A DNA stretch of 17,930 bases from a bacterium (lineage in GTDB: Bacteria; Zixibacteria; MSB-5A5; GN15; FEB-12). Location: NCBI GenBank assembly GCA_043811375.1, contig JBDRNJ010000028.1, forward strand, positions 1 through 17,930, written 5' to 3'. This document shows positions 1 through 17,574 of the stretch, piece by piece. The translations under genes and the position numbers were made by a program. Under the pieces are notes generated by a model. It was not told the DNA's origin and did not search any database. It saw only the letters and a program-made list of their open reading frames with translations. Within the stretch, counting starts at the first letter, position 1. Each line of letters opens with the position of its first letter.

Positions 1-2
1 CG

Positions 3-908
3 AGTGCGCACGGCTGTCCCACCCAGGCGCTCTATCAACTCCGGAACACAGCGGGAGCAGATCAGATTGTACAGAACGGTCTCACCCGGGTGTTTGGCCA
101 ACAACGATTTGGCCACCAAAGCGGTAACCAGGTCCCCACCCAATGGTCGCCCGTGTCGATCGACTAAGAACATACGGTCGGCATCACCGTCAAAGGCCAC
201 CCCGAAGTCGGCCTTGGTGTCGGCGATGGCTCGCTGCAGATCAACCAGGTTTTCCGGCTCAATCGGGGAGGCGGGATGATTGGGGAAGTTGCCGTCCGGT
301 TCAAAGAACAGCTGGGTGACCTTAATGGGAAGCTGTTTCAGGACTGGAGGCAAGGTAGCTCCAGCGACACCATTACCGGCGTCGATAGCAATATGGTAGG
401 GCTTGACGGCCGCAATGTCGATAAACGACAGGCAGTGAGCGGCGTAGTCGGCGGCGATGTCTTTGCGCACGACTACGCCTCGTGACGGAGCTCTGGTGAT
501 CGGCTTATCCGCCTCAATCGCCTTGAGAATGAGGTTCAGTCCATCCTGTCCGGAAAGCGGTTCGGCTCTCTCGCGACAGATTTTGAAGCCATTGTATTGC
601 TTGGGATTGTGGCTGGCCGTGATCATGATACCGGCATCGTACTCGAAGCGACCAACCGCAAAGTAGAGTCCGTCGGTTGAGACCATTCCCAGGTCAATGA
701 CATCGGCGCCGGCGTCGTTGATTCCCCGCGCCAGATGCTCGAACAATTCGTCAGAAGACAGGCGCATGTCGCGACCGACGGCGATTGTCCTGGGTTTGAG
801 CAAATGAGACAAATGATAGCCGATCTGGAAGGCAATATTGCCGTTTACCTGATCGGGGAAGGTGCCACGAATATCGTAAGCCTTAAAAATCGAAGGATCT
901 ACAATCAT
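3..908 (-). CDS. Phosphomannomutase/phosphoglucomutase (alpha-D-phosphohexomutase family), 5' part; runs off the window edge
   Basis: Manual minus-strand translation (absent from the ORF track) begins MIVDPSIFKAYDIRGTFPDQ. It contains the phosphoserine loop GIMITASHNP and the metal-binding loop GVAFDGDADR. ATG at 908, with GAGG just upstream. Confidence 0.95.
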   Translation of the reverse strand, partial: MIVDPSIFKAYDIRGTFPDQVNGNIAFQIGYHLSHLLKPRTIAVGRDMRLSSDELFEHLARGINDAGADVIDLGMVSTDGLYFAVGRFEYDAGIMITASHNPKQYNGFKICRERAEPLSGQDGLNLILKAIEADKPITRAPSRGVVVRKDIAADYAAHCLSFIDIAAVKPYHIAIDAGNGVAGATLPPVLKQLPIKVTQLFFEPDGNFPNHPASPIEPENLVDLQRAIADTKADFGVAFDGDADRMFLVDRHGRPLGGDLVTALVAKSLLAKHPGETVLYNLICSRCVPELIERLGGTAVRT

Positions 909-1479: not shown

Positions 1480-1553
1480 GGGGTTGTAGTTCAGTTGGTT
1501 AGAACGCCTGCCTGTCACGCAGGAGGCCGCGAGTTCGAGTCTCGTCAACCCCG
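1480..1553 (+). tRNA. tRNA-Asp(GTC); integration target; CCA not encoded in the integrated state
   Basis: Acceptor GGGGTTG/CAACCCC, D arm GTTC/GAAC, anticodon stem CCTGC/GCAGG with GTC at 1514-1516, T arm GCGAG-TTCGAGT-CTCGT, discriminator G followed by CTT. Confidence 0.97.
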
Positions 1554-3094
1554 CTTATTTTGTCAATAGACAGAACTTCACCATTGGGGGCGGCCTTCCG
1601 AAGATCAGGAAGAGTATATTCGACAGTGACTTGCGGGTAGTCCACGTCTATTTCCCTAACAAATGACCTTAGGAACGTCTGACGCTCCCATATACTCCCC
1701 TCCGCAAGAAGATCGTACATATCGTCGACGTAGCGTCGTAAGTCGGCCTTGCTGATGCCGGGCACCGTGCCCTGTTGACGTCGTTGGCATTCGAGCCTGT
1801 TCGCCTCTGCCTGAAGTGCGTCGACCTGGGCCTTCAACCTTTTGATTCGTGGAGCGAGGTCAGATAGCTCAAGCTCTCCCGATTCAAGGCAGGCATACAG
1901 GCGATCGAGCCTGTTCTGCGTCGCTTTGAGCTGATCGTTCACGGCTTCGACCTTGCCACTGCTCCCCTCTCGGGCTCGTCGAATCTCCTCGTTCGTCAAC
2001 TTCAGCAGCTCTGTGAGGTTTTCGGGCGTCAAGACCCGCTCCTTGATCTTCTCAACGACCGCTCTCTCCAGTGCGCCAACCGGCACCATCTTGGCATCGC
2101 ACACATCGCTGCCCTTGCGGAGATGATTGTAGCAACCGTAGTACCGGTAATTGCCGGACTTGGCGCTGCCTCCCTGCATGGCCCGTCCGCACTTTCCACA
2201 GCGAACGAGGCCACTCAGCAGATAGGACGAACTCTGCCGCCGAGGATGATAGAGATTCGGATTCCGGCTATCCATTAGTAGCTGAGCTGTGTCAAACTGT
2301 TCCCTCGGAACTATCGGCTCACAGTAGTCGTCCACCTCGAACCTCTCTTCCCCGGGCTTGAGCTCCCGGTGCATGGCATATACGTATTTACCAATCACGA
2401 TCGGATTCCGAAGAACGCGATAAACCGCCATCTTCGCCCACTTTTTCCCGCGCCGGGTCAAGAATCCGCGCCGGTTCAACTCCTTTGCAATCTCTTTTGC
2501 TCCATGACCCTCACAGCAACGGTTGAATATCAGTGCCACGGTCGATGCGGACTCCTGGTCCGGTACGAGCTTCCGACGCTTGGTAGCACTATCCCGGATG
2601 GTCTCGTGCTTGTAGCCGAAGGGGGGATACCCGCCGTTGCAAAAGCCTCGTAGAGCATTCTCTTTCAGCCCTCGCTTGGTATCCTGAGACAGGTTAGCGG
2701 AGTAGAACTCGTCAATAGATTCTATCATGCCTTCCAGCAACGCACCTACCGGGCTATCGTCAACGGGCTCGTTGATCGAGACTACCTGAATCCCCCGCCT
2801 GCGGAGAAGAGACTTGTAGACAATGGAGTCTTCACGATTGCGGGCAAACCGTGACAGCTTCCAGAGCAAAATAGCGTCGAACGGCTTCGGCTTGGCCTTG
2901 GCCAAGGATATCATCTCCTGGAATGCCGGCCGATTCGCTGTCCGCGCGCTCTCGGCTTCGTCGATGAACTCCCTGACGATTTCGTAGCCCTTCTCAGCGG
3001 CGTACTTACGCAGTGCCCTCAGTTGGGCGGATATCGACAGGTCCTTTTCTGCCTGCCGCTCCGACGAGACTCTTGCGTACAGGACTGCGTTCAT
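1499..3094 (-). CDS. Large serine recombinase (integrase), 531 aa
   Basis: Catalytic motif YARVSS, then SRFARN, a recombinase domain (GGYPPFGY), a zinc ribbon (LSGLVRCGKCG...YYGC...C) and a coiled coil. The 3' end reads antisense through tRNA-Asp. Confidence 0.96.
   Translation of the reverse strand: MNAVLYARVSSERQAEKDLSISAQLRALRKYAAEKGYEIVREFIDEAESARTANRPAFQEMISLAKAKPKPFDAILLWKLSRFARNREDSIVYKSLLRRRGIQVVSINEPVDDSPVGALLEGMIESIDEFYSANLSQDTKRGLKENALRGFCNGGYPPFGYKHETIRDSATKRRKLVPDQESASTVALIFNRCCEGHGAKEIAKELNRRGFLTRRGKKWAKMAVYRVLRNPIVIGKYVYAMHRELKPGEERFEVDDYCEPIVPREQFDTAQLLMDSRNPNLYHPRRQSSSYLLSGLVRCGKCGRAMQGGSAKSGNYRYYGCYNHLRKGSDVCDAKMVPVGALERAVVEKIKERVLTPENLTELLKLTNEEIRRAREGSSGKVEAVNDQLKATQNRLDRLYACLESGELELSDLAPRIKRLKAQVDALQAEANRLECQRRQQGTVPGISKADLRRYVDDMYDLLAEGSIWERQTFLRSFVREIDVDYPQVTVEYTLPDLRKAAPNGEVLSIDKISGVDETRTRGLLRDRQAF
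1543..1554 (+). repeat. attL core CGTCAACCCCGC
   Basis: Identical to 16949-16960; overlaps the tRNA-Asp acceptor 3' strand and the recombinase ORF. Confidence 0.9.
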
Positions 3095-3942
3095 ATCAAA
3101 CCTCCCAGAAACGACGTTTGGGGATCATCCATTCTTAGTAACGCGCAAACTTGGTTGATGCCGTGAGGTTTCAGGTCGACGACGTAGTCGTGGCCCCTTG
3201 TTGAGCCAAACACCGTAGCGGGCAGCTCAGTCTCTATCGGCACCCTGTCATTCATACAAACTGCTATGGAGTCATCGTAAGTTATGCCGTCTCCAGCCCT
3301 CCAATACCTGTGGAAGCGCTTGGACTTCACAGCGTATCGCACGCGGAACGGATGTTCGGAGTCATCGTCGTTCGAGTTCGGTTCGATGTATACCGCAGCG
3401 CATAGGCCCGGATGCGCCTGCACGTATCGAATGGTTGTAGCTTCGAACGAGGCCACGTAACGGTGCGACAGGGCCTTAATCGTCGCTATCTCCGTGGGCA
3501 TGCTCGTAGCATCTGCCACGAAACAGCCCTGCGGGAATAGTATAAGGCCAGCGTATTCAAACGCTTCTCTCTCAAAACCCTTCAGACCAATATCCGGTAT
3601 GGAAGCACACTCGCACGCGAAGTCGTATCCATTGTGCCAGGGGAGATCGTAGTGTCCGATTTCGTGCAAAACGCTGAGTCTCTGTCGTTCAAGACTATCG
3701 CCTGCCTTAATCACAATCTGCGCGTCATCGCCCCGTGCAATCATGAAGGCAGGCACATGCATTTCCAAGCCTGCTCTTCTCCTCAACTCATCTACGCTGC
3801 TGTCATCTATCCCAACCAACTCGATGTCGAAGTATGCCAGAATCGGGTCGATTGGAATCGGCGGCTCCTTCACGCCCACGTCGCGCAGGGTCCGTCCAGC
3901 GTAGAATCCGATGTCATGCGTCACCACCGTGTCGTAGCGCAA
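3091..3942 (-). CDS. ImmA/IrrE-family Zn metallopeptidase (anti-repressor), 283 aa
   Basis: R-x-S-x-x-HEIGH zinc motif, followed by EREAFEYAGLILFP, an HTH-like segment and a C-terminal extension. TTG start 3 bp after the repressor stop; ATGA overlap with the integrase start. Confidence 0.88.
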   Translation of the reverse strand: MRYDTVVTHDIGFYAGRTLRDVGVKEPPIPIDPILAYFDIELVGIDDSSVDELRRRAGLEMHVPAFMIARGDDAQIVIKAGDSLERQRLSVLHEIGHYDLPWHNGYDFACECASIPDIGLKGFEREAFEYAGLILFPQGCFVADATSMPTEIATIKALSHRYVASFEATTIRYVQAHPGLCAAVYIEPNSNDDDSEHPFRVRYAVKSKRFHRYWRAGDGITYDDSIAVCMNDRVPIETELPATVFGSTRGHDYVVDLKPHGINQVCALLRMDDPQTSFLGGLI

Positions 3943-3945
3943 AAC

Positions 3946-4305
3946 CTATCCCTTGTCATCCTTCTCCTGCATTATCAGGAACTTGACGTAGTCGAGCAGC
4001 TCCCGCCTCTTACCCTCGGAGAGCTTCTCATACCCTCGGAAGATCACGTTAGCTCTTTCATCGGTCCGAAGTGCCTCGTCGAACTCCATTCGCTCAGCAT
4101 TGCTCACCAAGAAGTCTACGCTTACGCGTAGGGCCCGGGCCAGCCCCGCGAGCTTGTCAGACTTCAGTTGAGTGACTTCTCCAGACTCCAACCTAGAGAT
4201 TGTAGCTTGAGCCAAGCCTGACTTGCGGGCCAGGTCCGCTTGACTTAGACCTAACTCGTGCCGCTTGACCTTGATCTTCTCGGCCAGTTGAACGTCTTTT
4301 GTCAT
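3946..4305 (-). CDS. XRE-family HTH repressor (ImmR-like)
   Basis: LSQADLARKSGLAQATISRLESG...LARALRVSVDFL plus a C-terminal helix. ATG at 4305 has GAGG upstream, so it is preferred over the ORF-track start at 4338. Confidence 0.92.
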   Translation of the reverse strand: MTKDVQLAEKIKVKRHELGLSQADLARKSGLAQATISRLESGEVTQLKSDKLAGLARALRVSVDFLVSNAERMEFDEALRTDERANVIFRGYEKLSEGKRRELLDYVKFLIMQEKDDKG

Positions 4306-4337
4306 TGTTTCATCCTCATCCTTCGCCTTTAGCATCA

Positions 4338-4506
4338 ACTATATGCATCCCCACAAGATATTTGTCAACAGAAATCTATAGGATCTTCACTGATTAGTGA
4401 TGTTCTGACATGACCAGCCAATAAGTGTCATTATTTGCTTGACTTACAGAGTGCTTATGTGCATTCTGCTCGTTGAGAGACAGGAGTATTGCGCCAACGA
4501 CAATAC
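4338..4506. promoter_or_regulatory. Divergent promoter/operator region between the repressor and the Cro-like gene
   Basis: Minus strand: TTGACA (4368-4363) with TATAGT (4343-4338, 19-bp spacer). Plus strand: TTGACT (4439-4444) with CATTCT (4462-4467, 17-bp spacer). Inverted repeats TCACT/AGTGA (4387-4400), TGACA/TGTCA (4406-4430) and GTATTG/CAATAC (4486-4506). Confidence 0.5.
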
Positions 4507-4560
4507 GTCACTGCATAGGAAATATGTGGTTTGTCAGACAACTCGAATCCCACGGATAGG

Positions 4561-4776
4561 ATGAAGCAGAAGTACCGTGCTCGTGTGCTGGAGTGCCGCC
4601 TCAGCGCACACATCCCCAAGCAGAAGGACCTCGCCCGACTGACTGGCATCGCTCCGACCATCATCAGCGAGCTGGAGTCTGGTGCGCTCTTCCTTTCATC
4701 CCCATACGCACTGGCGATAGCCGAAGCCTGTAAGTGCAGCCTCGACAACCTCTTTGAAGTGCGAACCAGGAGATAG
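4561..4776 (+). CDS. Small Cro-like XRE HTH protein (71 aa from ATG 4561)
   Basis: QKDLARLTGIAPTIISELESG...AIAEACKCSLDNLF fits the HTH_3 pattern; divergent from the repressor; GGATAGG lies before the ATG (alternative TTG start at 4531). Confidence 0.85.
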   Translation: MKQKYRARVLECRLSAHIPKQKDLARLTGIAPTIISELESGALFLSSPYALAIAEACKCSLDNLFEVRTRR

Positions 4777-4779
4777 TCT

Positions 4780-4956
4780 GTGACCGCCGTCATTGACAAC
4801 AGCCACAGCCACGATCAGGGCCTCGCCATCCTTGCCCGCCTTATCGCTCGCACGGTTGTCCGTGATTGTCAGAAACAGGACCGAGCCACTACAGATCACA
4901 AGAGTGTGGCGGCGGCATACCCCATCAGCAGTAGCGTTCTGGAGAAAACTGCATGA
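4780..4956 (+). CDS. Small hypothetical protein, 58 aa (not in the ORF track)
   Basis: GTG at 4780 with AGGAG 7 nt upstream; translation MTAVIDNSHSHDQGLAILARLIARTVVRDCQKQDRATTDHKSVAAAYPISSSVLEKTA. It fills the gap between two genes exactly, and its stop overlaps the primase start (ATGA). Confidence 0.75.
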   Translation: MTAVIDNSHSHDQGLAILARLIARTVVRDCQKQDRATTDHKSVAAAYPISSSVLEKTA

Positions 4957-7490
4957 ATGAGATCGAATTCCGTCAGGTTGTCGACCAGATCAAGAATGCC
5001 GTCAATATCTTAGAGGTCATCGGCGCCCACGTGGAACTCAATAGCCGCAATATGGGCTGTTGTCCCTTTCACGAAGACAGCAATCCCAGCTTCTCGGTCA
5101 ATCCCGACGGCCAGTATTTCCACTGCTTCGGCTGCGGGAAAGGTGGCGACGTGATCCGCTTCGTTGAGCTGATCGAGGGCCTCCCATTCACAGAGGCTGC
5201 CAGCAAACTCGCCGGTCTGACAGGCATTCCGTTCAAGAATCTTGATGAAGATCAGATACGAACAATGAGCGAAGCGCGTCAGGTAGCAGACGTTCTGACA
5301 GCCACCGCCCGGTACTATCATGCGAGTCTGTCTACCGAGGCGGCAGATTACCTCCGCAAGGATCGAGGCTTCACGGACGAAATAATCGGGAAGTTCTGCC
5401 TCGGCTGGGCGGGTGGTAGCCTCAGGCATCATTTGACCCAGGATTGCCGGTTCTCAATGGAACTTTGCCTCAGAGCAGGCGTGCTCAAAGAGACGGATCA
5501 AGGGCCAGTACGCGACTACTTTTACCAACGGATCATCTTTCCCAATTGGAAGGCCGGACGAGTGGTTCACTTGACAGGTCGCACGCTCGATGATAAAGGT
5601 CCGAAATACCTGCACTTGCCAGGCTCAATGCACTACCTTTTCACTGAGGATGCGCTCCGGAACGAGCAAGTCGTTCTCTGCGAGGGGGCTCCCGACTGCA
5701 TCACTGCCGTTCAGGCTGGTTGGCCTGCCGTCTCTATACTCGGCACCAGCCAGTTCAATGAGTCGTATCCAGACCGCTTCCGGAAATGCAAATCGGTCTA
5801 CGTCTGTCTTGACGGGGACGATGCCGGTCGCAATGCTGCCAGTAGGATAGGTCGATGGCTGCCTGACAAAGCAATCGTTGTGGCTATGCCTGACGGCGTC
5901 GACATCAATGATTACCTGATGCGGAACACACCGGAGAAATTCCAGACCCTGCTGGACGAAGGAAAACGCTATCTTGACCTGGAAATCGACCGGATTTCAA
6001 CGATCCCGGAGAATAGACGAATGGACGAGGTCCGGGAGTTTCTGCCGTTGCTTTTCGGACTTGATGATTTCGACCGCCAGCGTTACATCGACAGGGTCAA
6101 GCGTGAATTCAAGCTCAACAAGAAGACAATCGAAGCAGGCGTTTACGCAGGCAAGGCCGACAAGCCCGATCCGCCACTCGAGGGCGAACCTGAGAAAGAG
6201 CAGCCTATCACTGACACTGAGCGAGAACAGGCCCTGGAGTTGCTCCGAGACCCTGATCTCATCGAGAAGATCGGCTCCGTGTTGACCGACTTGGGCTGTG
6301 TCGGAGAAGGGAACAATAAGGTCATCGTCTACATGGCCTTGACGTCGCGGATTCTGGAGCACCCGATTAGTCTGATAGTGAAAGGCGAGAGTTCCGCCGG
6401 CAAGAGCTACTTGGTCGAGACTGTCACCAAACTCTTCCCAGAGGAGGACATTCTCAAATTCACGGCCATCACTCCAAAGGCCCTCTTCCACCGGAAGGGC
6501 GGACTCGAACACAAGGGGTTGATTGTGTTTGAGCGGCCCGGTGCCGAAGAGAGCGACTACTCGATTCGGTCACTCCAATCGGAAGGGAAGCTGCTGATCA
6601 CCATGTCGATTAAGGACCCGGAAACCGGAGAGTGGATCAATCACGACAAAGTGGTGCCGGGCCCCGTAGCCTACATTGAGACCACCACGCAGACTCACAT
6701 CCACGCCGAAAACGAAACAAGGTGTTTCGAAATCTATATCGATGAATCGGAAGAACAGACTCGCCTGGTTCACGAAGCTCAGAAAGAGCGCTTCCGTGCG
6801 CCAGGAGAGCAGCGAGCCGTTGATACGAGACCGTGGGTAGTAGCTCAACGCATCCTTGAGCCTCTTCCGGTCATCATTGACTACATCGACCTGATCCCCT
6901 TCCCTACCAAACCTCTGCGCGTGCGACGCGATCACGATCGTCTCCTGACTCTGATTGAGGCGAGCGCAACCCTTCACCAACACCAGAGGGAGAGGCGAAC
7001 AATCGATGGCCAGGAGTATCTGATCGCCGGACTCGAAGACTACGTAGTGGCATATAGTCTCGCCACAGACGTCTTGCAACAGACCATCAAGCAGATCACG
7101 CCGCAGGCCGAGAAGCTCGCCAACCTGATCGACCGCCTACAAGGCGAAAACGGCGGACAACCAATCACCAACAGGGAGATTGTTGATGGTCACGAGGCCA
7201 CCGGCAATACGGTCAAGAAGTACCTCCGTGAGCTCATCAAGCAGGGAGTCGTCGAGGAGGATCGCTCGGGAAAGGCACACCTGTTTAGTATTCTGAGGAT
7301 GCCTGATAAGGAAACATGTCTACTTGTTCATCCCGAAGAGCTTCGGAGGCGATTCGAGGCGCAACAGGAATCGCATCTCCCCAAACCTAACCAAATGCCC
7401 ATTGGTGGGATTAAGGATGGAATTGAAAACGACTTAACCCAACCTCACCAACCTACCCAAGGGTGTGAAGGGAGGTCAAATGAGCTTTAG
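4953..7490 (+). CDS. DnaG-type primase (CHC2 zinc finger + TOPRIM) fused to a P-loop ATPase/putative helicase and a C-terminal wHTH-like domain, 845 aa
   Basis: CPFHEDSNPSF...HCFGCG zinc finger; RIIFP and GPKYL primase core; TOPRIM CEGAPD and LDGDDAG; Walker A GESSAGKS (nt 6384-6407); NTVKKYLRELIKQGVV wHTH-like end. Confidence 0.9.
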   Translation: MNEIEFRQVVDQIKNAVNILEVIGAHVELNSRNMGCCPFHEDSNPSFSVNPDGQYFHCFGCGKGGDVIRFVELIEGLPFTEAASKLAGLTGIPFKNLDEDQIRTMSEARQVADVLTATARYYHASLSTEAADYLRKDRGFTDEIIGKFCLGWAGGSLRHHLTQDCRFSMELCLRAGVLKETDQGPVRDYFYQRIIFPNWKAGRVVHLTGRTLDDKGPKYLHLPGSMHYLFTEDALRNEQVVLCEGAPDCITAVQAGWPAVSILGTSQFNESYPDRFRKCKSVYVCLDGDDAGRNAASRIGRWLPDKAIVVAMPDGVDINDYLMRNTPEKFQTLLDEGKRYLDLEIDRISTIPENRRMDEVREFLPLLFGLDDFDRQRYIDRVKREFKLNKKTIEAGVYAGKADKPDPPLEGEPEKEQPITDTEREQALELLRDPDLIEKIGSVLTDLGCVGEGNNKVIVYMALTSRILEHPISLIVKGESSAGKSYLVETVTKLFPEEDILKFTAITPKALFHRKGGLEHKGLIVFERPGAEESDYSIRSLQSEGKLLITMSIKDPETGEWINHDKVVPGPVAYIETTTQTHIHAENETRCFEIYIDESEEQTRLVHEAQKERFRAPGEQRAVDTRPWVVAQRILEPLPVIIDYIDLIPFPTKPLRVRRDHDRLLTLIEASATLHQHQRERRTIDGQEYLIAGLEDYVVAYSLATDVLQQTIKQITPQAEKLANLIDRLQGENGGQPITNREIVDGHEATGNTVKKYLRELIKQGVVEEDRSGKAHLFSILRMPDKETCLLVHPEELRRRFEAQQESHLPKPNQMPIGGIKDGIENDLTQPHQPTQGCEGRSNEL

Positions 7491-7615
7491 CACGAACGTT
7501 TGTTTTAACCCCTCGTTTTCCGTGGCGATATTGGTGAGATGTGCCTTAGACGTTGGGCCTCAAAAGGATAACCTGACCAACGCCAACTTGGTCACATTTG
7601 GTGAGATGGGGAGGT
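7375..7615. repeat. Cluster of degenerate 10-bp repeats (AYCTNACCAA-like) in both orientations; candidate replication origin
   Basis: Forward: ATCTCCCCAA 7375, ACCTAACCAA 7385, ACCTCACCAA 7442, ACCTACCCAA 7451, ACCTGACCAA 7571. Inverted: TTGGTGGGAT 7402, TTGGTGAGAT 7531, TTGGTCACAT 7588, TTGGTGAGAT 7598. Confidence 0.75.
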
Positions 7616-7618
7616 CGC

Positions 7619-7957
7619 ATGCCTAACGTGGTGGAATTCCTGCGAAGCTTCCGTGGGCGGTCCAAGGTCCCGAAGCCGCCTGAACTGTCTGCCGTTGTGG
7701 CTGAAGGCGTGCTCTCCATGTCCGCCACCGAGTTCCGCGACGCCAATCTGGCTGTGTTGGTGCGAAGCTATCTACTGGGCGAGGATATCGTCTTAGCTTC
7801 AAATGACCGATGCCGTGTGCTGTATGGCCACAAATACGTCACCTACCTGCCAGAGGAACTCATGGCTGTTTACCAACTATCACCCGATTTCGTTAAGAGA
7901 ATCCACCACATCAAGAAGTTGTGCGACGGTGAAATCCTCGCAGAGGGAGTTCTATAA
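7619..7957 (+). CDS. Hypothetical protein, 112 aa
   Basis: ATG at 7619 preceded by GGAGGT; stop lies 1 bp before the next ATG; no recognisable motif. Confidence 0.7.
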   Translation: MPNVVEFLRSFRGRSKVPKPPELSAVVAEGVLSMSATEFRDANLAVLVRSYLLGEDIVLASNDRCRVLYGHKYVTYLPEELMAVYQLSPDFVKRIHHIKKLCDGEILAEGVL

Positions 7958-7958
7958 C

Positions 7959-8876
7959 ATGGCCGTATCATCCCCGGCCAAGATTGCCGCCAATCGGCGC
8001 AATGCGAAGAAGTCGACTGGTCCCAAGACCAAACGGGGCAAGGCGATTGTACGTTACAACGCCATGAAGCATGGCTTGTTGGCGAAAGAGGCAGTGATAA
8101 CCGTTGGTGACGGCAAGGAGAATGAAGCCGATTTCGGCAAGACCCTGCAGTCACTCGTCGACGATTTTCAGCCTGTCGGCCCAATGGAACAGATACTTGT
8201 GGAGCGCATTGCCGTCAGCTATTGGCGGTTGCGTCGCGCTCTCCGGGCCGAAACAGGGGCCATTCGTAATCAGCTCGATTCGTTTATCTGGACCAGCGCC
8301 CGGAAGGCCGAAAGTGACTTAAAGCACAACATGCGATTCTCAGATTTGCCTGAGTGTAGAGAGAGCATCATGACCGATCCAAAGGGACTCCAGCTGCTCA
8401 TAGATGAGTTGGAAGTGGTCAAGACTCAGATCGAAGAGGACGGTCACATTTCCGAGCACAGCATTGAACGGCTATTCGAGTTTTACGGTCGCACAGACTT
8501 GAACACAGGCAGCTTGCTGAACTACTACAATCGCTTAGCTGACAAAGTTGTCAACGGAGACTCCGGAGTTTCGCAAGTCGAGCCTTTGAATGAGGAAGAG
8601 CGCAAGCAGACACTGCTCGGTTTGGTGAAATGGGAAATATCCAGCCTCAAAAAGACTCTGAAACAAGCTGAGACCAAGGTTAAACTGGGACTCCAAGCTG
8701 AATCAATGGCTCTCAGCATTCCTGACGCCAACACCACCAATACCTGTCTCCGTTATGAGACCACCATCGAAAGGCAGCTGTACCGCGCCCTGAACCAGCT
8801 CGAACGCCTCCAGCGGGCTCGCAAGGGCGATGCTGTCCCCCCGCCAATCAACGTCGAGCTCTCAGCCTCGGCCTGA
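7959..8876 (+). CDS. Hypothetical protein with basic N-terminal motif ANRRNAKKSTGPKT...NAMKHGL (HGGxSTG-related; possibly small-terminase-like), 305 aa
   Basis: ATG at 7959 with GAGGGAG upstream (the ORF-track start at 7803 overlaps the previous gene). Conserved-looking blocks ILVERIAVSYWRLRRALRAE and RYETTIERQLYRALNQLERLQ. Confidence 0.75.
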   Translation: MAVSSPAKIAANRRNAKKSTGPKTKRGKAIVRYNAMKHGLLAKEAVITVGDGKENEADFGKTLQSLVDDFQPVGPMEQILVERIAVSYWRLRRALRAETGAIRNQLDSFIWTSARKAESDLKHNMRFSDLPECRESIMTDPKGLQLLIDELEVVKTQIEEDGHISEHSIERLFEFYGRTDLNTGSLLNYYNRLADKVVNGDSGVSQVEPLNEEERKQTLLGLVKWEISSLKKTLKQAETKVKLGLQAESMALSIPDANTTNTCLRYETTIERQLYRALNQLERLQRARKGDAVPPPINVELSASA

Positions 8877-9126: not shown

Positions 9127-9984
9127 ATGGCTCACGGCTCTATTAACGGCGCAAATCTCGGCTTCGAATCCGAACTCTGGCGAGCGGCCGACGCCTTACG
9201 GTCCAACATGGATGCCGCTGAGTATAAACACGTCGTGCTCGGTCTAATCTTCCTCAAGTACATCTCAGACGCTTTTGAAGAGCAGCATGCCAAGCTCGAA
9301 GCGGACCGTGCACAGGGAGCCGACCCGGAAGACCCCGACGAGTACCGGGCCATCAACATATTTTGGGTGCCCAAAGAGGCGCGCTGGTCCAAGCTCAAAT
9401 CCGAAGCCAAGCAGCCGACCATCGGCAAGGTCATCGATGACGCCATGCTCGCCATCGAACGCGATAACCCATCGCTCAAAGGTGTGCTGCCCAAGGACTA
9501 CGCCCACCCGCGCCTCGACAAGCAGAGGCTTGGTCAACTCATCGACATGATTGGCAACATAGGTCTGGGAGATAAGGCCAACCGCTCCAGGGATATTCTC
9601 GGCCGGGTCTACGAGTATTTTCTCTCTCAGTTCGCCAGCGCCGAGGGTAAGAAAGGCGGCCAGTTCTATACACCACGTTGCGTTGTCCGTGTTCTGGTCG
9701 AAATGCTTGCCCCTTACAAGGGGCGAGTCTATGACCCGTGCTGTGGCTCTGGCGGAATGTTTGTTCAGTCGGTTGAATTCGTTAAGGCCCACGCCAACGG
9801 CAATGGTAATGGAGGAAAAACAAAGGCCGATGTCAGCATCTTTGGCCAGGAATCGAACCATACCACTTGGCGGTTAGCTAAGATGAATCTCGCCATCCGG
9901 CAGATCGAGAATAACCTCGGTCTCAGTAACACATTTGGTCATTATCATAGGCACCCAGAAGCCCGATATAAGATACAACGCTAA
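9127..9984 (+). pseudogene. hsdM: Type I restriction-modification M subunit, C-terminally truncated (~285 aa)
   Basis: [31 protein letters not shown], the SAM-binding motif [11 protein letters not shown] and GQESN...MNLAIR are present. Similarity fades near 9920, and no NPPF motif, hsdS or hsdR follows. Confidence 0.88.
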
Positions 9985-10010
9985 TTTCAGTATCATTTAG
10001 GAAGTCCTCA

Positions 10011-11642
10011 ATGGACCGAGTCTCCAATCTGGAAGAAATACTCGACTTCGCTACCGGCATTGACCGAGTGAATACTCTTCTGGAGTTGGCCTCACTAATC
10101 GGAAAGTCTGCTCCCGACCGAGCCATCAGGCTCGTTGAGGAAGCTGTGGAGTTGGCCGGATCAGTCAACTACCCGCAGGCCAAGCCCAAGGCTTTTCTGT
10201 ATATGAGCTTAGCATACTGGGTAAAAGGGGATAGCGACAAGGCCATTGAGGTCGCGAATTCGGCCCTGCGCCTGTTTCAAGAGCTTGATGATCAACGAGG
10301 GGTTGGAGAGGCCTATCGTTCGATCGGGAGGAGTCTAAGCCGCATACATGAGCATGATAGGGCGCTGGAATCCCTATTCAAGGCGGTTGCAGCTTATGAA
10401 GCGATTGAGGATCAGAGCAATGTCGGTAAGACATTCAATGAGATTAGCTATGTCTATTGGGTTCGCAAGGAGTTCGAGAAGTCATTCGACTACTCGAATA
10501 GGGCACTTGAAGCGTTTCGTAACGTAGGTGACGAAAAGAACGCCGCAACGATCCTGGGTAATATGGGGGTACTTTATCTGGAAATTGAGCAGCTTGACAT
10601 GGCGCTTGAACATTGCATGCAAGCCAGGGCAATTTGGGACGACATGGGGGAGCTCGAGCATCTGAATGCGGTCCATGTCTTCATCAACCTGAGCAAGATC
10701 CTTCTTCTTAAAGGTGACTGCGAACAGTCCCTTAAGTACGGACACATGGCTGAGGGACTTAGTGAAGCGATAGACTTCAAAGAGGGCCTGGCACAAGCTC
10801 GTGGTAACATGGGATTGTCATACTTCCGCCTGAAAGACTATGCTAAGGCTGAGGAGCTTCTGAAGAGCTGCCTTGAGATTTCACGACAGATCAAGAATAC
10901 ATTCATAGAGCTTGAGGCCCTGAAGGATCTGGCGGTAGTAAGAAGGGCGCAACAGTCCTATGAAGCGGCTTTCGAGTATTTGGAGCAATATGACTCCATA
11001 AAGGACAAGCTGCACGATGAACGTCGAAGTGCCCTGATAGCTGAAATGGAAGCCAGATTTGAAAGCGAGAGAAACAGGAAAGAAGCCGAGATTTATCGCC
11101 TGAAGAATGTTGAGTTGGCAGGCGAAATAAAAGAACGTAAGAAAGTCGAGCGCGAACTCTCCAAGTACCAAAAGCAACTCCAAAGGCTCGTCGACGAGAG
11201 AACTCAAGAGCTCGAACAGGAAAGAACTGCTCTGGCACAAAAGAACATAGCCCTCAACCAGATTCTCGAACACCTTGAAACTAAACGTCAGAAGACAAAA
11301 CGTGAAGTATATCTCAATCTAGAGAAGTCTCTGCTGCCGTTCATGGACAAACTCGCCGATATATCTGACAAGCAGAATGCCCAGGTGATTGAGCATATGA
11401 GCATGACTCTTAGAGCCATTCTTGATCAGGACATGTCCGAGTTCAAGGACAAATACGCCAGGTTATCACCGCGAGAGATGCAGATCTGCATGCTCCTAAA
11501 AAAGGGGCTCACCTCAAAGCAAGTCGCAGATGCCCTTAGCATCTCACTTTACACAGTTAAGAATCACCGTGAGCAAATCCGCAAAAAGCTCGGTATCACT
11601 AATAAACACATCAATTTAGCTTCCTTTCTGAAGGCTCGGTAG
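10011..11642 (+). CDS. TPR-repeat protein with a coiled coil and C-terminal LuxR-type HTH, 543 aa
   Basis: Tandem ~40-aa TPR-like repeats (e.g. ATILGNMGVLY, AQARGNMGLSY); C-terminal LSPREMQICMLLKKGLTSKQVADALSISLYTVKNHREQIRKKL. Confidence 0.92.
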   Translation: MDRVSNLEEILDFATGIDRVNTLLELASLIGKSAPDRAIRLVEEAVELAGSVNYPQAKPKAFLYMSLAYWVKGDSDKAIEVANSALRLFQELDDQRGVGEAYRSIGRSLSRIHEHDRALESLFKAVAAYEAIEDQSNVGKTFNEISYVYWVRKEFEKSFDYSNRALEAFRNVGDEKNAATILGNMGVLYLEIEQLDMALEHCMQARAIWDDMGELEHLNAVHVFINLSKILLLKGDCEQSLKYGHMAEGLSEAIDFKEGLAQARGNMGLSYFRLKDYAKAEELLKSCLEISRQIKNTFIELEALKDLAVVRRAQQSYEAAFEYLEQYDSIKDKLHDERRSALIAEMEARFESERNRKEAEIYRLKNVELAGEIKERKKVERELSKYQKQLQRLVDERTQELEQERTALAQKNIALNQILEHLETKRQKTKREVYLNLEKSLLPFMDKLADISDKQNAQVIEHMSMTLRAILDQDMSEFKDKYARLSPREMQICMLLKKGLTSKQVADALSISLYTVKNHREQIRKKLGITNKHINLASFLKAR

Positions 11643-11651
11643 GCTCCTCGA

Positions 11652-11707
11652 CATAGGCACTCCTATAGGCACTTTTCGGTCCTTGTTGGATCTCGATCTA
11701 TGCCTAT
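11652..11707. promoter_or_regulatory. ATAGGCA(CT) direct and inverted repeats between the regulator and the large gene; candidate operator
   Basis: ATAGGCACT at 11653-11661 and 11665-11673; inverted TGCCTAT at 11701-11707; CATAGGCAC also at 9946-9954, upstream of the regulator. Confidence 0.5.
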
Positions 11708-11714
11708 CCTATAA

Positions 11715-14700
11715 ATGACGAATAGGATGGTCAACAGAAAGGTAAAGAACGTGTCTAGACAAAAAGCAACGCTATTGCAAGCTGCCGGCATTCTGCTGGT
11801 TTTCGCGATGTGCGCGACGGCATGGCCCGAGGACGTGAAACGCTCCTCCGTTCCGGGGATCGCTGTCTCGCCCAATGTTATCTTGGAACAAGATCGAATT
11901 GACGAGGCGCCGATCATCGAATCGGCTCCTACCCAAGCACCCTCCGAAGATCAAGCCGCGCCGGCTGATGAGGAAGGCGTGCGCGCTATGCAGGACGTAA
12001 TTACCGAAGCCCGGGAGACCGGGAAGCTCAAGAATCCATATGCGTCGGTTCTGGCTCCTAATCCGGTCGACGGCGCCAATGGAAGGACTATCTTTCTCTG
12101 GGAAACCTTCTTAGACTACAGCTTCGATCCGAGTTGGACGGTTATCAATACCAATACGGAAGGTGACAACTGGTATGTAGACACCTATTCCAACTATGAC
12201 CTTGACGGCTATGCCGCTCGCGTCAATGGTTGGATGGCTACCAGCCTTATGGATGAATGGTTGATTTCACCTGCGATGGACCTGACCAGCGCTGATCCGT
12301 CTTGCCTTCGCCTGGAGTTTGCCTGGGTAGGCTGGTCGCAGCTGGCTGTTTGGCCGTACGACAACTACGATCTGGAAGTCTGGATCTCGCTTGATGGTGG
12401 TGCCACCTGGGCGGCCAAGATTTGGGACGAGGAGACCAACGGACCGGAGACCTTTGATTACTGGGAATACGCGGTCATGGACATGTCGGCTTATGCCGGC
12501 GAGGCTAATATAGCTCTTGGTTTCCGTTACTACAGTGAGCTGGGGGGCGGTGATTGGGGTCTCTTTGATGCTATTAAGCTGCACGATTCACCTCCGCCGG
12601 TTGGTCGCTGCTGCTTTGCCGATGGGACCTGCGATGACATGATGGAAGCAGACTGCGATGCCGCAGGTGGCCATTGGAATGAGGAGCTGAATTGCACCGA
12701 CAATCCGTGTCAGCCCGGCGACAACTGTATCAACCCTATAGTTATCAGCCTCCCGGCTGCGTTACCATACGAAGATCTTGGACAGACAACCTGTGGTCGC
12801 GGCAATGACATCGAGGAGGGCACCCTTTGCGAGACATGGGGATACGGTCGAGACTACGACATGGTCTACGAACTTGTGCTGACGTCTGAGACAGACCTCA
12901 TAATAACTATGGATCCGAAAGGCAACAAGCAGGCTATCTTCCAGGTCGGCACGTCGTGTACACCGTCTGCCGGCGAGTGCTTGTTCTACGCCACTGGTGA
13001 TTGGACAGGATCCGCTCCTTTCAGTTCGGGGGTCCAACAACTTTCAGCAGGCACTTACTACCTCTTGATCGATGGCTATAAAGGCGCCTATGGGGACAGT
13101 ACGGCTTGCATGGAGGACTTCGATTTGTGGATAGAGATCCCACCGGATCTCGGTCCTGGAAGCACTTGCGAGGACCCAATCATCGTTGACATTGATGCCG
13201 CCCTCGCCGGCGGAGGTTATGTTGACACCAATACGACCTGCCTGCGCGGCAACAGCAATGATATGACCTGTCTGGGATGGCATGACTCCGGCGAGGATAT
13301 CTTCTATCAGCTTGATGTCACAAACGCAACTGATATAGATGTCACCGTCAATTCCTTTGGGGTTAACAATGTTGGCGTGCTGATAGCCACCGGATGCCCG
13401 GATGAACTCAACTGCTTGGACTACTATGCCAACACAGGTACCGGCGAGTCCAAGCTATTCTCGGTTCACTTGGAGCCGGGCTCGTATTACCTAATGATCG
13501 ACCGGTCTACCGATTGTCTGTTCGAGTTCGAGCTCTCTATTGACGAAGCCCAGCCTACGGCACCCGGCGACAACTGTGGAACTCCGATCGTTCTGAATTC
13601 CTCCACAGATTTCCCTTACAATGCCATTGAAACGACCTGTGGTCGTTACAACAACTACAATCAAACCTGTAATAACAGCTGGGACGATGGCGAGGATCTG
13701 GTCTATCAATTGAACATTGAATCGCCTATGCGGGTCGAAATCTCTTATGATCCGATGGGAACGTCGTACGTAGGACAGATTCTCACTGATCAGTGTCCTC
13801 CGCCCAGCGGTTGGGGTACCTGTCTGGTGACCACCTACAACTACGGAGCCGACCCAAAGAGCTTCCGGATTGATCTAGATCCGGGAACATACTACCTGTT
13901 GTTCGACAATCAGATTCCGTGGAGCGATCCCGACCAGACGTGTATCCCACAGATTGACATCAGTATCAGTGAATTCGAGTGTCCGGGGATTCCCAATGAC
14001 AACTGCGCCGACGTTACGCCGGTAGCAGTAGAATCCGGGGTCACGGTGACTCTGACTGGCGAGAACACGTGCGCTAGCAATGACTGTCCGGATCTCCCCT
14101 ATCTGGGTGTCGCCTGGGAAGCCTTCACGATCGATACACTGTCAGCAGTCACCATCGATTTCTGCGGCACTGCGCCGGCCTTCGAAGTTGTTGCAACGAC
14201 GATCTACACTGCTTGTCCGTGCGATGGTGGAGTCGAGTCTTACGAAGCGTCCACCTATGACTGGTATCTGTGTGATGGAAACATTTCGATGACGTTCGAC
14301 ATTCTGCCGGCCGGTACGTACTACATTCCGGTTGTATCCAACGATCCAAACTACAGTCCGATCAACTACTACTACGAGGGTCCTTACACCATCAACATCA
14401 GCGCCGAACCAACCTATTGGCACTACTGCGAGGCCACTTCGTCGGCGTGGTGTGATCAGTGGATCGAGAACTTCCAGTTCGCCAATATCAACAACAGTTC
14501 GGTCTGCGAACTCTATGGTGATTTCACCGACAAGGCAGCTTTTGTGCAACCGGGCGAGACATACGACATGAGCGTAACAATCGCCAACTCGTGGAGCTAC
14601 GAGGCCATTCGAGTGTGGGTCGACTGGAATCAGGATTGGGATTTTAGTGATCCGGGTGAACAGGTTTTCGAGTACTGGTGGTCCGGCCAGGTAACGCTGC

Positions 14701-16703
14701 CCGTAACAGTTCCAGCGGACGCTGCTCTGGGAGCAACTCGCCTGAGAGTTCGCTTCGATTCCGGAATGGAGCCCTATCCCTGTGGTAACAGCTGGGCGGG
14801 AGAGATCGAAGACTACACAGTCGATGTCGGCGGCAGCCCGCCTTCGTTGATAGTTGAACCTACCTCGATCGACTTCGGATCCGTCGAGGGAGGAACCACG
14901 GGGGGCACGACACTCAACCTTACAGTTGACGGCGACTACGAGATCCTGTATTGGACCGAAATCGCTTACGAAGGCACACCCGACTACCCTGGAATGCGCC
15001 AAGTCATAACCGACATGGGTAACACGCTACCCGACAAAGCTCCGTACTCCGGTCCGGAATACACCAATCCTTCGGGATCACCTAAACAGGGAGGCGATCA
15101 GATTGCTGATGCGTTCGTGATTCCCTCGGATACATACAGCACGACTGGAACGACAGACGGATATATCGACCACTACTACGAGGAGTGTCCTTACTGGAGT
15201 CCGGCAGCGCCAGATGTCGTCTACGCCTACACGGCTACTCAGGATAGATACTTGAATATCGATCTTTATGGTTCCTCGTACGACACTAAGCTCTTCGTTT
15301 TTGAGAACGATGAAAACACAGTAATCGCTTGCAACGACGACTTCTATGCCGACTATACCTCGGCCCTCTTCGACGTGGCTGTTTACGCCGGAAACACATA
15401 TTACATCGTGGTGGACGGTTACAGCGAAGCCGGCGACTACGTGTTCGACTTCTCCGCCGTGGAGCCTTCTGAGCCTATGGCCTGTCCTGACAACAGCATT
15501 CCCGAGCTCGAAGAATGCGGCGGAATAAGCAACAACGGCTGCAACATGCCGGAACCGGCATTTGAAACGGTGGAGTGTGGCGACACCATTTGCGGGACTC
15601 TGTTTGCTCAGGATAATTACAGAGATACGGACTTCTACACGGTAACGGTTGAGGACGCCGGCTGGCTTACCATCACTGGATGCGCCGAGCTACCGCTCGT
15701 GCTGGCCTTTGTGGCCTTCGATCCGATGGGCGTGGTTGATTGTGACAATGCTCTGTACCTTGAGCCCTGGGTTGCCGGCCTTCCGGGAGATACAATTTCT
15801 ACTCAGCTGAAAGTGGAGCCGGGAACTTACGCGGTCTTCGCAGCTCCCGCCGTATTTTACTATTATCGCTGCGGCGCACATAACAACTACTGGTTTACGG
15901 TGGACTGCAATCTCCCCACGCCATGGTTAAGCGTTTTGCCTGAGGAAGGGGTAATTCCCGGTGCCGGCACTTCCGAGCTGCAGGTCGGCTATGATGTTAG
16001 CGGATTGGATGAAGGCATACACAACGCCAACATTCTCATTACGCATACCGGTGCAGATCCCGGCAAGACGATCGACATAGTCCCGGTCACAATCGACGTT
16101 GGTCCCCCGCCGGTTCTCCATGTTGCAGATCCGGATACGCTGTCTGTCGTGATGAAGAACGCTGTCGGTGATGCCAAGATCGGAGCAGTCTATTTGAGTA
16201 AGTGGGTGATCGGGCAGGACGGCGATGTCAGTGACATAGCGAATCTGGCTATGACCTGCTCCGAAATCTCAGTTGACCTGACCACCGAGATTGTCCCGGT
16301 TGCCCCCGGCGGCATTATTGGCGATGCCCTCAAGGCTACATACGTAATTCCCGATCTAATCGTAGAGATTGAGTATCAACAGCCTGACAGTCTGATTTGG
16401 GGCGCGTTGGATTTGACCTATGAATTCACTTTTGAGGTCAATGGTGAGCCTGGAGCACATGCCGTCCCGGTGGTCCTCGGCGGTCATATCGCAGGGGACC
16501 TAAATGCTGACGGAGCAGTGGACATTGCCGACTTGATTCACATGGTCAACTACATGTTCAATGACGGGCCTGCCCCGGAAATCATGACAGCTGCGGATGT
16601 CACCGGTGACTGCATCGGACCAGACATTGCCGACCTGGTTCACTTGGTGAACTTCATGTTTAATGGTGGAGAAGAACTGATACATTGTCCTTCAGGTCAC
16701 TAA
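11715..16703 (+). CDS. Large secreted, acidic, Cys-rich multidomain protein with repeated beta domains, a GEVED domain and a C-terminal dockerin-like domain, 1662 aa
   Basis: Sec-type signal peptide (basic N-terminus, GILLVFAMCATA); cleaved-adhesin/choice-of-anchor-J-like domain (DEWLISP); ~140-aa repeats (GDNC..PI...G.D.VY...GTYYL.ID); GEVED-like block (VWVDWNQDWDF...TRLRV...GEIEDY, ~14610-14816); duplicated dockerin motifs GDLNADGAVDIADL and DVTGD..PDIADL (~16494-16670). The start could be 11715, 11727 or 11751. Confidence 0.9.
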   Translation: MTNRMVNRKVKNVSRQKATLLQAAGILLVFAMCATAWPEDVKRSSVPGIAVSPNVILEQDRIDEAPIIESAPTQAPSEDQAAPADEEGVRAMQDVITEARETGKLKNPYASVLAPNPVDGANGRTIFLWETFLDYSFDPSWTVINTNTEGDNWYVDTYSNYDLDGYAARVNGWMATSLMDEWLISPAMDLTSADPSCLRLEFAWVGWSQLAVWPYDNYDLEVWISLDGGATWAAKIWDEETNGPETFDYWEYAVMDMSAYAGEANIALGFRYYSELGGGDWGLFDAIKLHDSPPPVGRCCFADGTCDDMMEADCDAAGGHWNEELNCTDNPCQPGDNCINPIVISLPAALPYEDLGQTTCGRGNDIEEGTLCETWGYGRDYDMVYELVLTSETDLIITMDPKGNKQAIFQVGTSCTPSAGECLFYATGDWTGSAPFSSGVQQLSAGTYYLLIDGYKGAYGDSTACMEDFDLWIEIPPDLGPGSTCEDPIIVDIDAALAGGGYVDTNTTCLRGNSNDMTCLGWHDSGEDIFYQLDVTNATDIDVTVNSFGVNNVGVLIATGCPDELNCLDYYANTGTGESKLFSVHLEPGSYYLMIDRSTDCLFEFELSIDEAQPTAPGDNCGTPIVLNSSTDFPYNAIETTCGRYNNYNQTCNNSWDDGEDLVYQLNIESPMRVEISYDPMGTSYVGQILTDQCPPPSGWGTCLVTTYNYGADPKSFRIDLDPGTYYLLFDNQIPWSDPDQTCIPQIDISISEFECPGIPNDNCADVTPVAVESGVTVTLTGENTCASNDCPDLPYLGVAWEAFTIDTLSAVTIDFCGTAPAFEVVATTIYTACPCDGGVESYEASTYDWYLCDGNISMTFDILPAGTYYIPVVSNDPNYSPINYYYEGPYTINISAEPTYWHYCEATSSAWCDQWIENFQFANINNSSVCELYGDFTDKAAFVQPGETYDMSVTIANSWSYEAIRVWVDWNQDWDFSDPGEQVFEYWWSGQVTLPVTVPADAALGATRLRVRFDSGMEPYPCGNSWAGEIEDYTVDVGGSPPSLIVEPTSIDFGSVEGGTTGGTTLNLTVDGDYEILYWTEIAYEGTPDYPGMRQVITDMGNTLPDKAPYSGPEYTNPSGSPKQGGDQIADAFVIPSDTYSTTGTTDGYIDHYYEECPYWSPAAPDVVYAYTATQDRYLNIDLYGSSYDTKLFVFENDENTVIACNDDFYADYTSALFDVAVYAGNTYYIVVDGYSEAGDYVFDFSAVEPSEPMACPDNSIPELEECGGISNNGCNMPEPAFETVECGDTICGTLFAQDNYRDTDFYTVTVEDAGWLTITGCAELPLVLAFVAFDPMGVVDCDNALYLEPWVAGLPGDTISTQLKVEPGTYAVFAAPAVFYYYRCGAHNNYWFTVDCNLPTPWLSVLPEEGVIPGAGTSELQVGYDVSGLDEGIHNANILITHTGADPGKTIDIVPVTIDVGPPPVLHVADPDTLSVVMKNAVGDAKIGAVYLSKWVIGQDGDVSDIANLAMTCSEISVDLTTEIVPVAPGGIIGDALKATYVIPDLIVEIEYQQPDSLIWGALDLTYEFTFEVNGEPGAHAVPVVLGGHIAGDLNADGAVDIADLIHMVNYMFNDGPAPEIMTAADVTGDCIGPDIADLVHLVNFMFNGGEELIHCPSGH

Positions 16704-16811
16704 CTGAAGGGCCGACAGGCAAGAGAGCCGTGTCCGTTCTCTTGCCACCCAAATGGCTGCGAATCTCGTTCTACACTCAACCTTGGTACCACAACGTTGG
16801 GTAACGACGAT

Positions 16812-16847
16812 CGAGGGACTGCTTGATAGCGGTCCCTCGTTCTTTTT
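16812..16847 (+). terminator. Rho-independent terminator
   Basis: Stem CGAGGGACTGCT / AGCGGTCCCTCG (12 bp, one G-U), loop TGAT, followed by TTCTTTTT. Confidence 0.8.
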
Positions 16848-16948
16848 GAAGAGTGTCGCCGAAGCTACCGTGCTATGTGGCAAGCTGGAACCTTGCCGGG
16901 GGAGCTAACCCAAGCTGAACGCGAACTCGAAAGTCCTGTGTTTCGTAA

Positions 16949-16960
16949 CGTCAACCCCGC
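16949..16960 (+). repeat. attR core CGTCAACCCCGC (displaced tRNA-Asp 3' end; reads CAACCCC-G-CCA with the next two bases)
   Basis: Exact match to 1543-1554. Confidence 0.9.
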
Positions 16961-17574
16961 CATTTTTGAGTTTGGGTCCCTTCGGCAATGATGCTGAAGG
17001 GCTTTTTGTATGCGGCACTTAGGGTTGCGCCAGCGAGCGAGCAGTTCCAATATAGCAAATCGACCAATTCTCGTTTTTCGTCGTTATTTCGGCTAAGCCA
17101 AAGATCAGGAAGCTTTTGCGAGAGTTCTAGTATTCTCTCGGCAGTGTAGAGAATATCCGGCCCATTGCCGTTTAGAGCCTCAAGCTGTGACTGCAATCGG
17201 ATCTGTTCAGCTTCCCATTTTGCCGAGAGAGTCTTCCAGTGCTCAGTTGTGATAGTGTTTTCGAGCTTGTCCTGGTACGCCTGCTCAGTCCAGGTGTCGA
17301 TCTGCCCGAGTCTGACTGAGATTCTCTGCCGCTCGGCTTGCGTTCGTTCCGCTGTTGTTCGGTGACGGCTTGACAACTCCTTCATGATCTTAGAGGCCTG
17401 AGCGCGGGTCAGCACAAGCGGTCCAAGCAAATCGGAGAACTGATCGACGACGTCGGCCTCCCTTACATACACAAGATCGCAGCCGCCCGGTTTCATGCCG
17501 GTGCAGTGGTAATAGATATACCTGCCCTTCTTTCGCTCGGCAGTGATCTTTGCTCCGCACTTTGCGCAAACCAT
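16951..17574 (-). pseudogene. 3' remnant of a second large serine recombinase (zinc ribbon + coiled coil only)
   Basis: MVCAKCGAKITAERKKGRYIYYHCTG...C zinc ribbon, then a coiled coil, ending QKWRG* with the TGA inside the att core. The catalytic and recombinase domains are absent. Confidence 0.85.

Follow-up and report, generated by a model that had tools for sequence, protein, structure and literature searches.

A circle-only C-terminal tail under selection in a family of tRNA-targeting serine integrases, with a possible role in directionality

Introduction

The mycobacteriophage integration-dependent immunity switch is a case in which recombination rewrites the end of a protein, this end being the degron of the repressor. 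Integration of SSV1-type elements cuts the catalytic core of the integrase into two pieces. In these split integrases (named in PMC4383910) recombination rewrites a protein end, as it does in the 17,930-bp stretch of Zixibacteria DNA described here (the window); however, the canonical fold of the window's large serine recombinase (LSR) is complete before the att site.

An att site lying inside the integrase gene is a layout already in print for Myxococcus phage Mx8, for DsiB and for the streptococcal rumA ICEs. In Mx8, attP is located inside int, and on integration a C-terminus of 112 residues gives way to one of 13, which alters activity (PMC6070905, PMC4701971). The window element resembles Mx8 in having attP within the integrase gene with a new C-terminus in frame, but the Mx8 enzyme is a tyrosine integrase whereas that of the window is a serine integrase, and the part which it loses is an appendage outside the canonical fold. 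In the rumA ICEs, att lies inside a serine integrase gene and the excised form has another length and C-terminus, for which a functional difference was proposed (Ambroset et al., 2016, PMC4701971). Unlike the window element these ICEs are conjugative and target a protein gene, and the accessible part of PMC4701971 contains neither a conservation test nor a mechanism.

The 3′ end of the gene for the serine integrase DsiB of the Dehalococcoides ssrA islands always overlaps attL at the tDNA 3′ end, and its stop codon lies outside the island. McMurdie et al. (2011, PMC3146451) proposed that DsiB is fully functional only when made from the circle or when a tandem neighbor precedes its gene; they reported the C-terminus as divergent and left its function open. 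The 3′ end of the window LSR gene likewise overlaps attL, with its stop codon outside the island. The two systems differ in their target, which is the tmRNA 3′ end for DsiB but tRNA-Asp in the window (the family as a whole targets eight tRNA types in 45 loci), and in their genes, the ssrA islands having a dsiA-recF-parB-mom module and the window having ImmA-like, XRE, HTH and primase genes. They also differ in that sequence comparison shows the circle tail of the window family to be selected.

According to Islander (2015), serine integrases are not known to target tRNA genes. How LSRs without an obvious recombination directionality factor (RDF) set direction is an open question that has been posed for C-terminal DBD2 strands (PMC12286644). 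The SCCmec Ccr recombinases, with extra C-terminal strands on DBD2 that were suggested to block the RDF site (PMC12286644), are similar to the window LSR, but their strands are permanent, whereas that of the window would be present or absent by integration state. In the main texts of the open-access literature searched, a strand or HTH that is conserved and confined to the circle is not described, and the accessible parts of PMC12884075 and PMC8270828 hold nothing on such a strand.

Borders and gene content of the island

A 12-bp core at 1543–1554 (attL) is repeated exactly at 16949–16960 (attR), with no further copy on either strand of the window. The two copies delimit an island of 15,406 bp (approximately 15.4 kb) at its integration target, a tRNA-Asp(GTC) gene (1480–1554, + strand), the encoded CCA end of which is lost at attL, with a CCA remnant located after attR. 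Taken alone, a 12-bp repeat is weak evidence for the far end of an island. However, 16949–16960 is considered to be the true far end because an inverted-repeat arm shifted by 6 bp adjoins it, because next come the CCA remnant and the gene of an older recombinase, which ends in the same core, and because the tail encoded across the joined ends scores 21.0 bits on a family profile built without the window. The older gene is the 3′ remnant of a different LSR (16951–17570, − strand) with a zinc ribbon and coiled coil, its stop lying inside the core in another frame (...KWRG-stop), and it is interrupted by an IS3-type transposase at about 17570. As this remnant is of another LSR type and lies beyond the right core, the island would have entered an already occupied site. 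This second type, with a WRG or MRG end and its stop within the same tRNA-Asp core, was seen in the window (16951–17930), in G000:C32 (246–1511) and at loci L360, L367 and L370, and recurs directly next to elements of the tailed family, on their outer side. The window itself is contig C28 of genome G000. In contig C32 of this genome the tRNA-Asp end is present in two 24-bp copies, and a second tRNA-Val/tRNA-Asp pair (G000:C27, 40004–40228) has the same core with a different island and, judging family by appearance, a tyrosine integrase alongside.

Next to the integrase gene lie ORFs for an IrrE/ImmA-like M78 peptidase (3091–3942, − strand; domain match E 5e-5), which is an anti-repressor candidate, and for an ImmR-like XRE HTH repressor (3946–4338, − strand) with homologs in 10 of 15 elements of the family. 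A small divergent HTH protein of 81 aa (4531–4776, + strand), found at the same position in six relatives, is a positional candidate for Cro, Xis or RDF. LSRs require a separate RDF for excision; no small protein was common to all 15 elements and no shared RDF candidate was detected among them. It is followed by a DnaG-type primase with a C-terminal extension (4953–7490, + strand; in 6 of 15 elements), which suggests replication of the circle, and by a 357-aa protein of no family (7803–8876, + strand) that also occurs in three related elements. A 119-aa ORF at 7598–7957 matched neither a family nor a fold. Elements G290 and G294 share the module of the window.

The cargo (9127–16703, + strand) consists of a truncated HsdM, a TPR-LuxR regulator and a 1662-aa GEVED/dockerin protein. 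The HsdM gene (9127–9984) breaks off at about 285 aa, immediately ahead of the TPR-LuxR gene, with longer HsdM genes kept in the related elements G158 and G294, while the GEVED and dockerin protein (11715–16703) is secreted-type cargo behind the TPR-LuxR regulator. Reductive-dehalogenase-like ORFs, judged by eye, were seen in G775b, G829b, G909b and G989a, which have integrases of the same family.

A terminator-like hairpin at 16812–16839 (+ strand; consensus match only) is predicted to end cargo transcription before the tail and, in the circle, would stop antisense read-through into the integrase gene. No terminator-like site was detected after tRNA-Asp within 1400–1700. Another terminator-like hairpin, which was formerly 3′ of the tRNA gene, is now located beyond attR (16978–17001) and none is predicted after attL (1555–1700), so that read-through from the tRNA may run antisense into the integrase gene. 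No sigma-70-type promoter was found near either end of the island.

The integrase gene and its two forms

The LSR (531 aa; 1499–3094, − strand) contains Resolvase, Recombinase and Zn_ribbon_recom domains and a coiled coil, with Ser10 and four Cys invariant, and so has the catalytic, recombinase and zinc-ribbon features of a large serine recombinase. Its canonical fold ends at approximately residue 498 and the att core encodes residues 514–518. The preliminary description had reported that the recombinase ORF crosses the att core and that joining of the ends in silico gives another tail of 14 residues, also in frame. Both observations were confirmed. In the integrated state the ORF reads through the left core copy and ends in antisense tRNA-Asp with ETRTRGLLRDRQAF followed by TAA (14 codons; 1499–1542, − strand), a tail that is predicted to be disordered and is not selected as a peptide. 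Joining of the ends gives a 531-aa protein ending with VTKHRTFEFAFSLG and TAG (14 codons; 16905–16948, − strand), a circle-only tail that has no start codon of its own and fits the family consensus RTFELAFSLTI-stop. The idea of a swap between two designed tails was not upheld, as selection was detected on the circle tail only and the integrated tail is read-through into the tRNA gene. The equal length of the two tails (14 = 14) was also rejected as a sign of design, since the integrated-state stops of 45 tRNA-adjacent relatives fall at index 11–97.

Contigs of four of the seven listed runs were compared with the window and contained neither an attP nor an attB joint; as contigs drop rare variants, such missing joints are not the same as absence of the circle. 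One contig of run X1, which may be the source sample, is continuous over attR (10414–17026). In the same run (window 1–900 and 17160–17210), two contig variants were observed left of the tRNA gene with depths of about 9 and 17, the depth of the island being 12–15, which suggests a second strain, possibly without the island.

Survey of related integrases and far ends

Zixibacteria records supply the closest named homologs of the window. Of the best 120 of 3497 integrase homologs, 72 run out in antisense tRNA, 15 have an early stop, 22 have other non-tRNA tails and four have no anchor. Six carry RTF in the register of the window, while a seventh flagged row proved to be tRNA-derived. Three of the 22, the close homologs P0001, P0005 and P0014 (see also locus L120), share the same short TLPKLL tail, which comes from an arm with its motif one base nearer the core. 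A total of 59 genomic LSR loci were examined up to 78 kb upstream, of which 53 had an anchor, and 45 of these 53 lie directly at a tRNA gene, with eight types represented. Repeat candidates upstream numbered 48 in forward orientation and 29 in reverse-strand controls; T, V or S followed by F at positions 17–18 was found in 10 versus 0 of them, and an AGAAC-like arm in 15 versus 0. For 14 relatives and the window, across five tRNA targets, the joined ends give the tail in exact register. A far end was recognized in 15 of the 44 loci with at least 12 kb upstream, with no family tail in the other 29; far ends at 37–39 kb may belong to tandem neighbors. One AGAAC-like far copy (G290, −17182) leads to an immediate stop.

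In tandem arrays, LSR, linker and strand are also encoded by an older element when a newer member of the family precedes it. In metagenome arms, an in-frame LSR was found upstream in at least 6 of 80, where circle and tandem are indistinguishable. Pattern scans of viral contigs gave 0, 9 and 3 matches with no intact family attP, two of the matches being family far ends (L372, L373).

The LSRs adjacent to tmRNA genes were taken as DsiB-type by position and not by name. They share 27–31% identity with the window LSR, and both their frame across the core and their tail are different. They form a separate branch with 100% support in a quick tree, which was used only to separate this clade. Short tails are spread across the same tree, with HTH tails in one clade and in P0025. 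The tmRNA-adjacent LSRs L384–L392 (G751, G775, G976) cross att at residue 525, again in another frame, and three of their far-end or tandem tails share an ending of LEF and hydrophobic residues. DsiB-type integrases may have a selected circle tail of their own.

Selection on the circle-only tail

For analysis of the tail, metagenomes were searched with a DNA-only pattern consisting of core and arm, which fixes R and T and ends before F. At least 120 stretches matched, of which 80 were taken and, after removal of 10 with short flanks and 12 redundant ones, 58 arms remained; these are related, and counts of them are not independent events. Across the 58 non-redundant arms the circle tail reads F-x-L-x-F-x-L followed by a stop. 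In the integrase frame a stop occurs 8–12 codons on in 48 of the 58, with stops scattered in shifted frames, and at one and the same codon in 33 (TAA 13, TAG 14, TGA 6). In the 47 arms having F18, Leu20 is spelled by all six Leu codons, F22 is present in 43 and L24 in 36. The hydrophobic fraction at positions 18/20/22/24 is 0.84/0.91/0.95/0.93, and 0.07/0.19/0.05/0.07 between them. Pairwise, uncorrected pN/pS is 0.55 in frame, 0.91 and 2.11 in the shifted frames, 0.76–1.11 on the other strand and about 1.0 after the stop, where entropy is again that of the background. Approximately 10 of the 58 arms deviate or are decayed.

Of 200,000 random 7-codon stretches from this genome, none scored as high as the 21.0 bits of the window's circle tail, and the integrated tail scores −18.9 on the same profile. 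Among 285 genomes of the phylum, 25 contained matches to a tRNA-Asp-type pattern, which also fixes two bases of the F codon; there were 36 such matches, against one for a reversed-pattern control. In the 20 such arms read outside the window, the stop is at the window's codon in 14, one codon earlier in four and later in two. At the level of sequence comparison, these data show purifying selection on a putative amphipathic strand of seven residues in the circle form, and the tail is very probably a selected part of the circle-form protein. The conservation of an RTF-x-hydrophobic tail at the attP-state ends of homologs, which the preliminary description had asked about, was therefore borne out for the hydrophobic part, the signal starting at F, but not for 'RT' as a protein motif. 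Given this conservation, the sequence of the recombinase would depend on its integration state in a selected way.

The ParB-type HTH extension

In G290 and G294, joining of the ends fuses a 120-aa HTH_ParB extension in frame, and four of the six naturally strand-bearing homologs also continue into an HTH_ParB domain (E 1e-4, 2e-5 and 6e-8 for the three scanned, the fourth differing very little from the first). Searching with a profile built from two HTH tails gave 1176 representatives at E ≤ 0.001. The best 150 of these 1176 are all 50–262 aa in length; 48 of the 111 anchored HTH pieces among them have RTF-type motifs, and ahead of the att-coded GSP there is no conservation apart from about five pieces that include the end of the integrase. 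As regards annotation, roughly a thousand 'free' ParB-HTH proteins may be integrase ends in detached form. As a protein query the HTH tail had no match in viral contigs, and a word-index search with it returned the self-match only.

Architecture of the att sites

The attP join is an imperfect palindrome with its center at offsets 27/28, counted from the E of the family motif EVL. This corresponds to 1551/1552, where the symmetry of the arms places the putative crossover center. Within the arms, GTTCT at offsets 3–7 (1572–1576, − strand) mirrors AGAAC, or AGGAC in the window (16933–16937, − strand), at offsets 48–52. The left motif spells 'VL' of the family-wide EVL motif and the right one spells 'RT'; as they mirror each other, both would be DNA constraints read as protein, and 'RT' was rejected as a protein motif.

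In attB the tRNA T-loop sequence GTTCG (1533–1537, + strand) is a putative zinc-ribbon-domain motif of the arm, by analogy to PMC3783163, and lies 6 bp nearer the center than in the attP arm. The T-loop supplies CGAAC at offsets 42–46, and the shift of (A/C)GAAC between attP and attB is accordingly put at 6 bp from sequence only. Shifts of the DBD2 motif between attP and attB are 5 bp in LI integrase (PMC3783163) and 4 bp in SPbeta (PMC11722253).

Predicted structure of the two forms

An AlphaFold2 model of the window's integrated form has the complete LSR fold, with residues 496–531 unstructured (pLDDT < 50). Residues 1–494 of the model align to SprA 13–531 (9dxh; Z 19.9, rmsd 10.9, 461 residues aligned) and residues 137–494 to LI integrase 134–452; the ends of the aligned ranges match SprA 531–537 and LI integrase 452. 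In the model of P0113, a natural short-tail homolog, a strand at 529–535 follows a disordered linker of 25 residues; its block has a moderate pLDDT of 69, and 8 of the 80 alignment rows cover the tail. This strand aligned to no solved chain, a result that bears neither way on docking at the RDF site. Since the canonical fold ends before att, the circle form would add a tethered β-strand. It is predicted that this strand is paired in the circle form and that the integrated form keeps the canonical fold with a disordered tail.

Proposed mechanism and alternatives

By sequence, the 3′-terminal part of the island's own integrase gene codes for a flexible linker, within which attP lies; the circle encodes LSR, linker and strand, in some relatives continued by a ParB-type HTH domain, and the chromosome LSR, linker and unselected antisense tRNA. 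In the mechanism proposed here, a new recipient would make the circle form only, and this form must therefore integrate; a carrier would make the tail-less form only, which must therefore start excision. The exception would be a same-family element upstream in tandem, which supplies the strand as in the six fused homologs. The tethered strand probably pairs with the edge that the zinc-ribbon (DBD2) sheet leaves exposed and to which RDFs contribute a strand; the circle form would then ignore the RDF and integrate even while early genes are derepressed. Integration would remove this block and leave an RDF-responsive excision enzyme, so that the product of one recombination sets the direction of the next. 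Occlusion of the RDF site is favored because most RDFs add a β-strand to the DBD2 sheet and because the extra C-terminal strands of SCCmec LSRs could block this site (PMC12286644). In SprA, F532 is flanked by RDF residues and is important for directionality (PMC11722253). We lean towards the reading that the strand docks at the edge used by RDFs and makes the circle form integration-biased. This has a cost, as an RDF-proof circle form would also favor re-integration in the donor. The preliminary description had suggested that the two forms differ in stability or directionality; directionality fits the structure predictions and the literature better and is put forward as a proposal only. Its comparison with a degradation tag gained no support.

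A direct challenge to a protein role for the tail would be that it only reflects constraints acting on the DNA of the attP arm, such as sites for the integrase or an accessory protein. This holds for 'EVL' and for 'RT', R16 being AGA in 13 of 15 AGAAC-like arms, where it mirrors GTTCT. As an explanation of the tail it is hardly credible, since positions 20–24 and the stop lie 32–55 bp from the center and outside the 24–25-bp arm, third codon positions are the most variable, synonymous Leu codons differ at their first positions, any of the three stop codons may occur and conservation does not continue past the stop. It is also highly improbable that the tail ORF encodes an independent small peptide or HTH protein with its own start in the integrated state, the frame match being incidental. 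In tRNA-Ala-type arms an in-frame GTG is often preceded by GGAG at a distance of a few bases, and the HTH piece appears as a free protein in gene calls, but the window and the Val-, Ile- and Asp-type arms have no start codon, the called starts of HTH pieces are scattered over unconserved upstream DNA and the integrase register is exact in 15 of 15 joins.

The same tail-selection data would fit a switch of activity or stability with direction unchanged, as in Mx8, in which the strand caps a sheet edge or replaces a degradation-prone end, the circle form being strong and the integrated form weak or short-lived with low basal excision. The integrated form of Mx8 was reported as less active (cited in PMC4701971), and the proposal of McMurdie et al. 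that DsiB is fully functional only from the circle (PMC3146451) points the same way, as does the lack of a terminator-like site after tRNA-Asp (1400–1700), given that antisense RNA may damp the integrated gene. Such a switch is nonetheless considered unlikely, if still a serious contender: the integrated form includes all of the canonical fold, up to where LI integrase ends, and should therefore fold without the strand, and the length of integrated tails depends on the target tRNA and ranges from 11 to 97 codons, unlike that of a selected degron. The strand could also act as a built-in RDF which blocks re-integration and promotes excision of sister copies for replication of the circle, given that RDFs typically add a strand to DBD2 (PMC12286644), that the element carries a primase and that the HTH extension could replace a DNA-binding cofactor. 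This is improbable, as a newly entered circle would encode this form only and would have to integrate with it, and as chromosomal tandem arrays, which keep strand-bearing older integrases (6 of the 120 best homologs), would then be unstable.

Significance

Occlusion of the RDF site by the strand remains the preferred reading, and from it a wider proposal is drawn tentatively, as a possibility that may well prove wrong: that tRNA-targeting serine integrases of a widespread family control their direction through recombination of their own gene, with excision adding an RDF-site strand (and optionally a ParB-type HTH), integration removing it and tandem neighbors re-completing older integrases. 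The family provides matched natural isoforms that differ only by the strand, which makes the question of directionality testable. For genome engineering, it should be noted that chromosomal annotation of this family yields the integrated isoform; cloning from such annotations would miss the selected tail and could explain false negatives. The targets of the circle forms are conserved 3′ ends of tRNA genes, with at least eight tRNA types in several phyla. If the proposal is true, the family would possess a one-gene, product-encoded directionality switch, possibly without a separate RDF, and would offer a natural answer to whether C-terminal DBD2 strands govern the directionality of LSRs.
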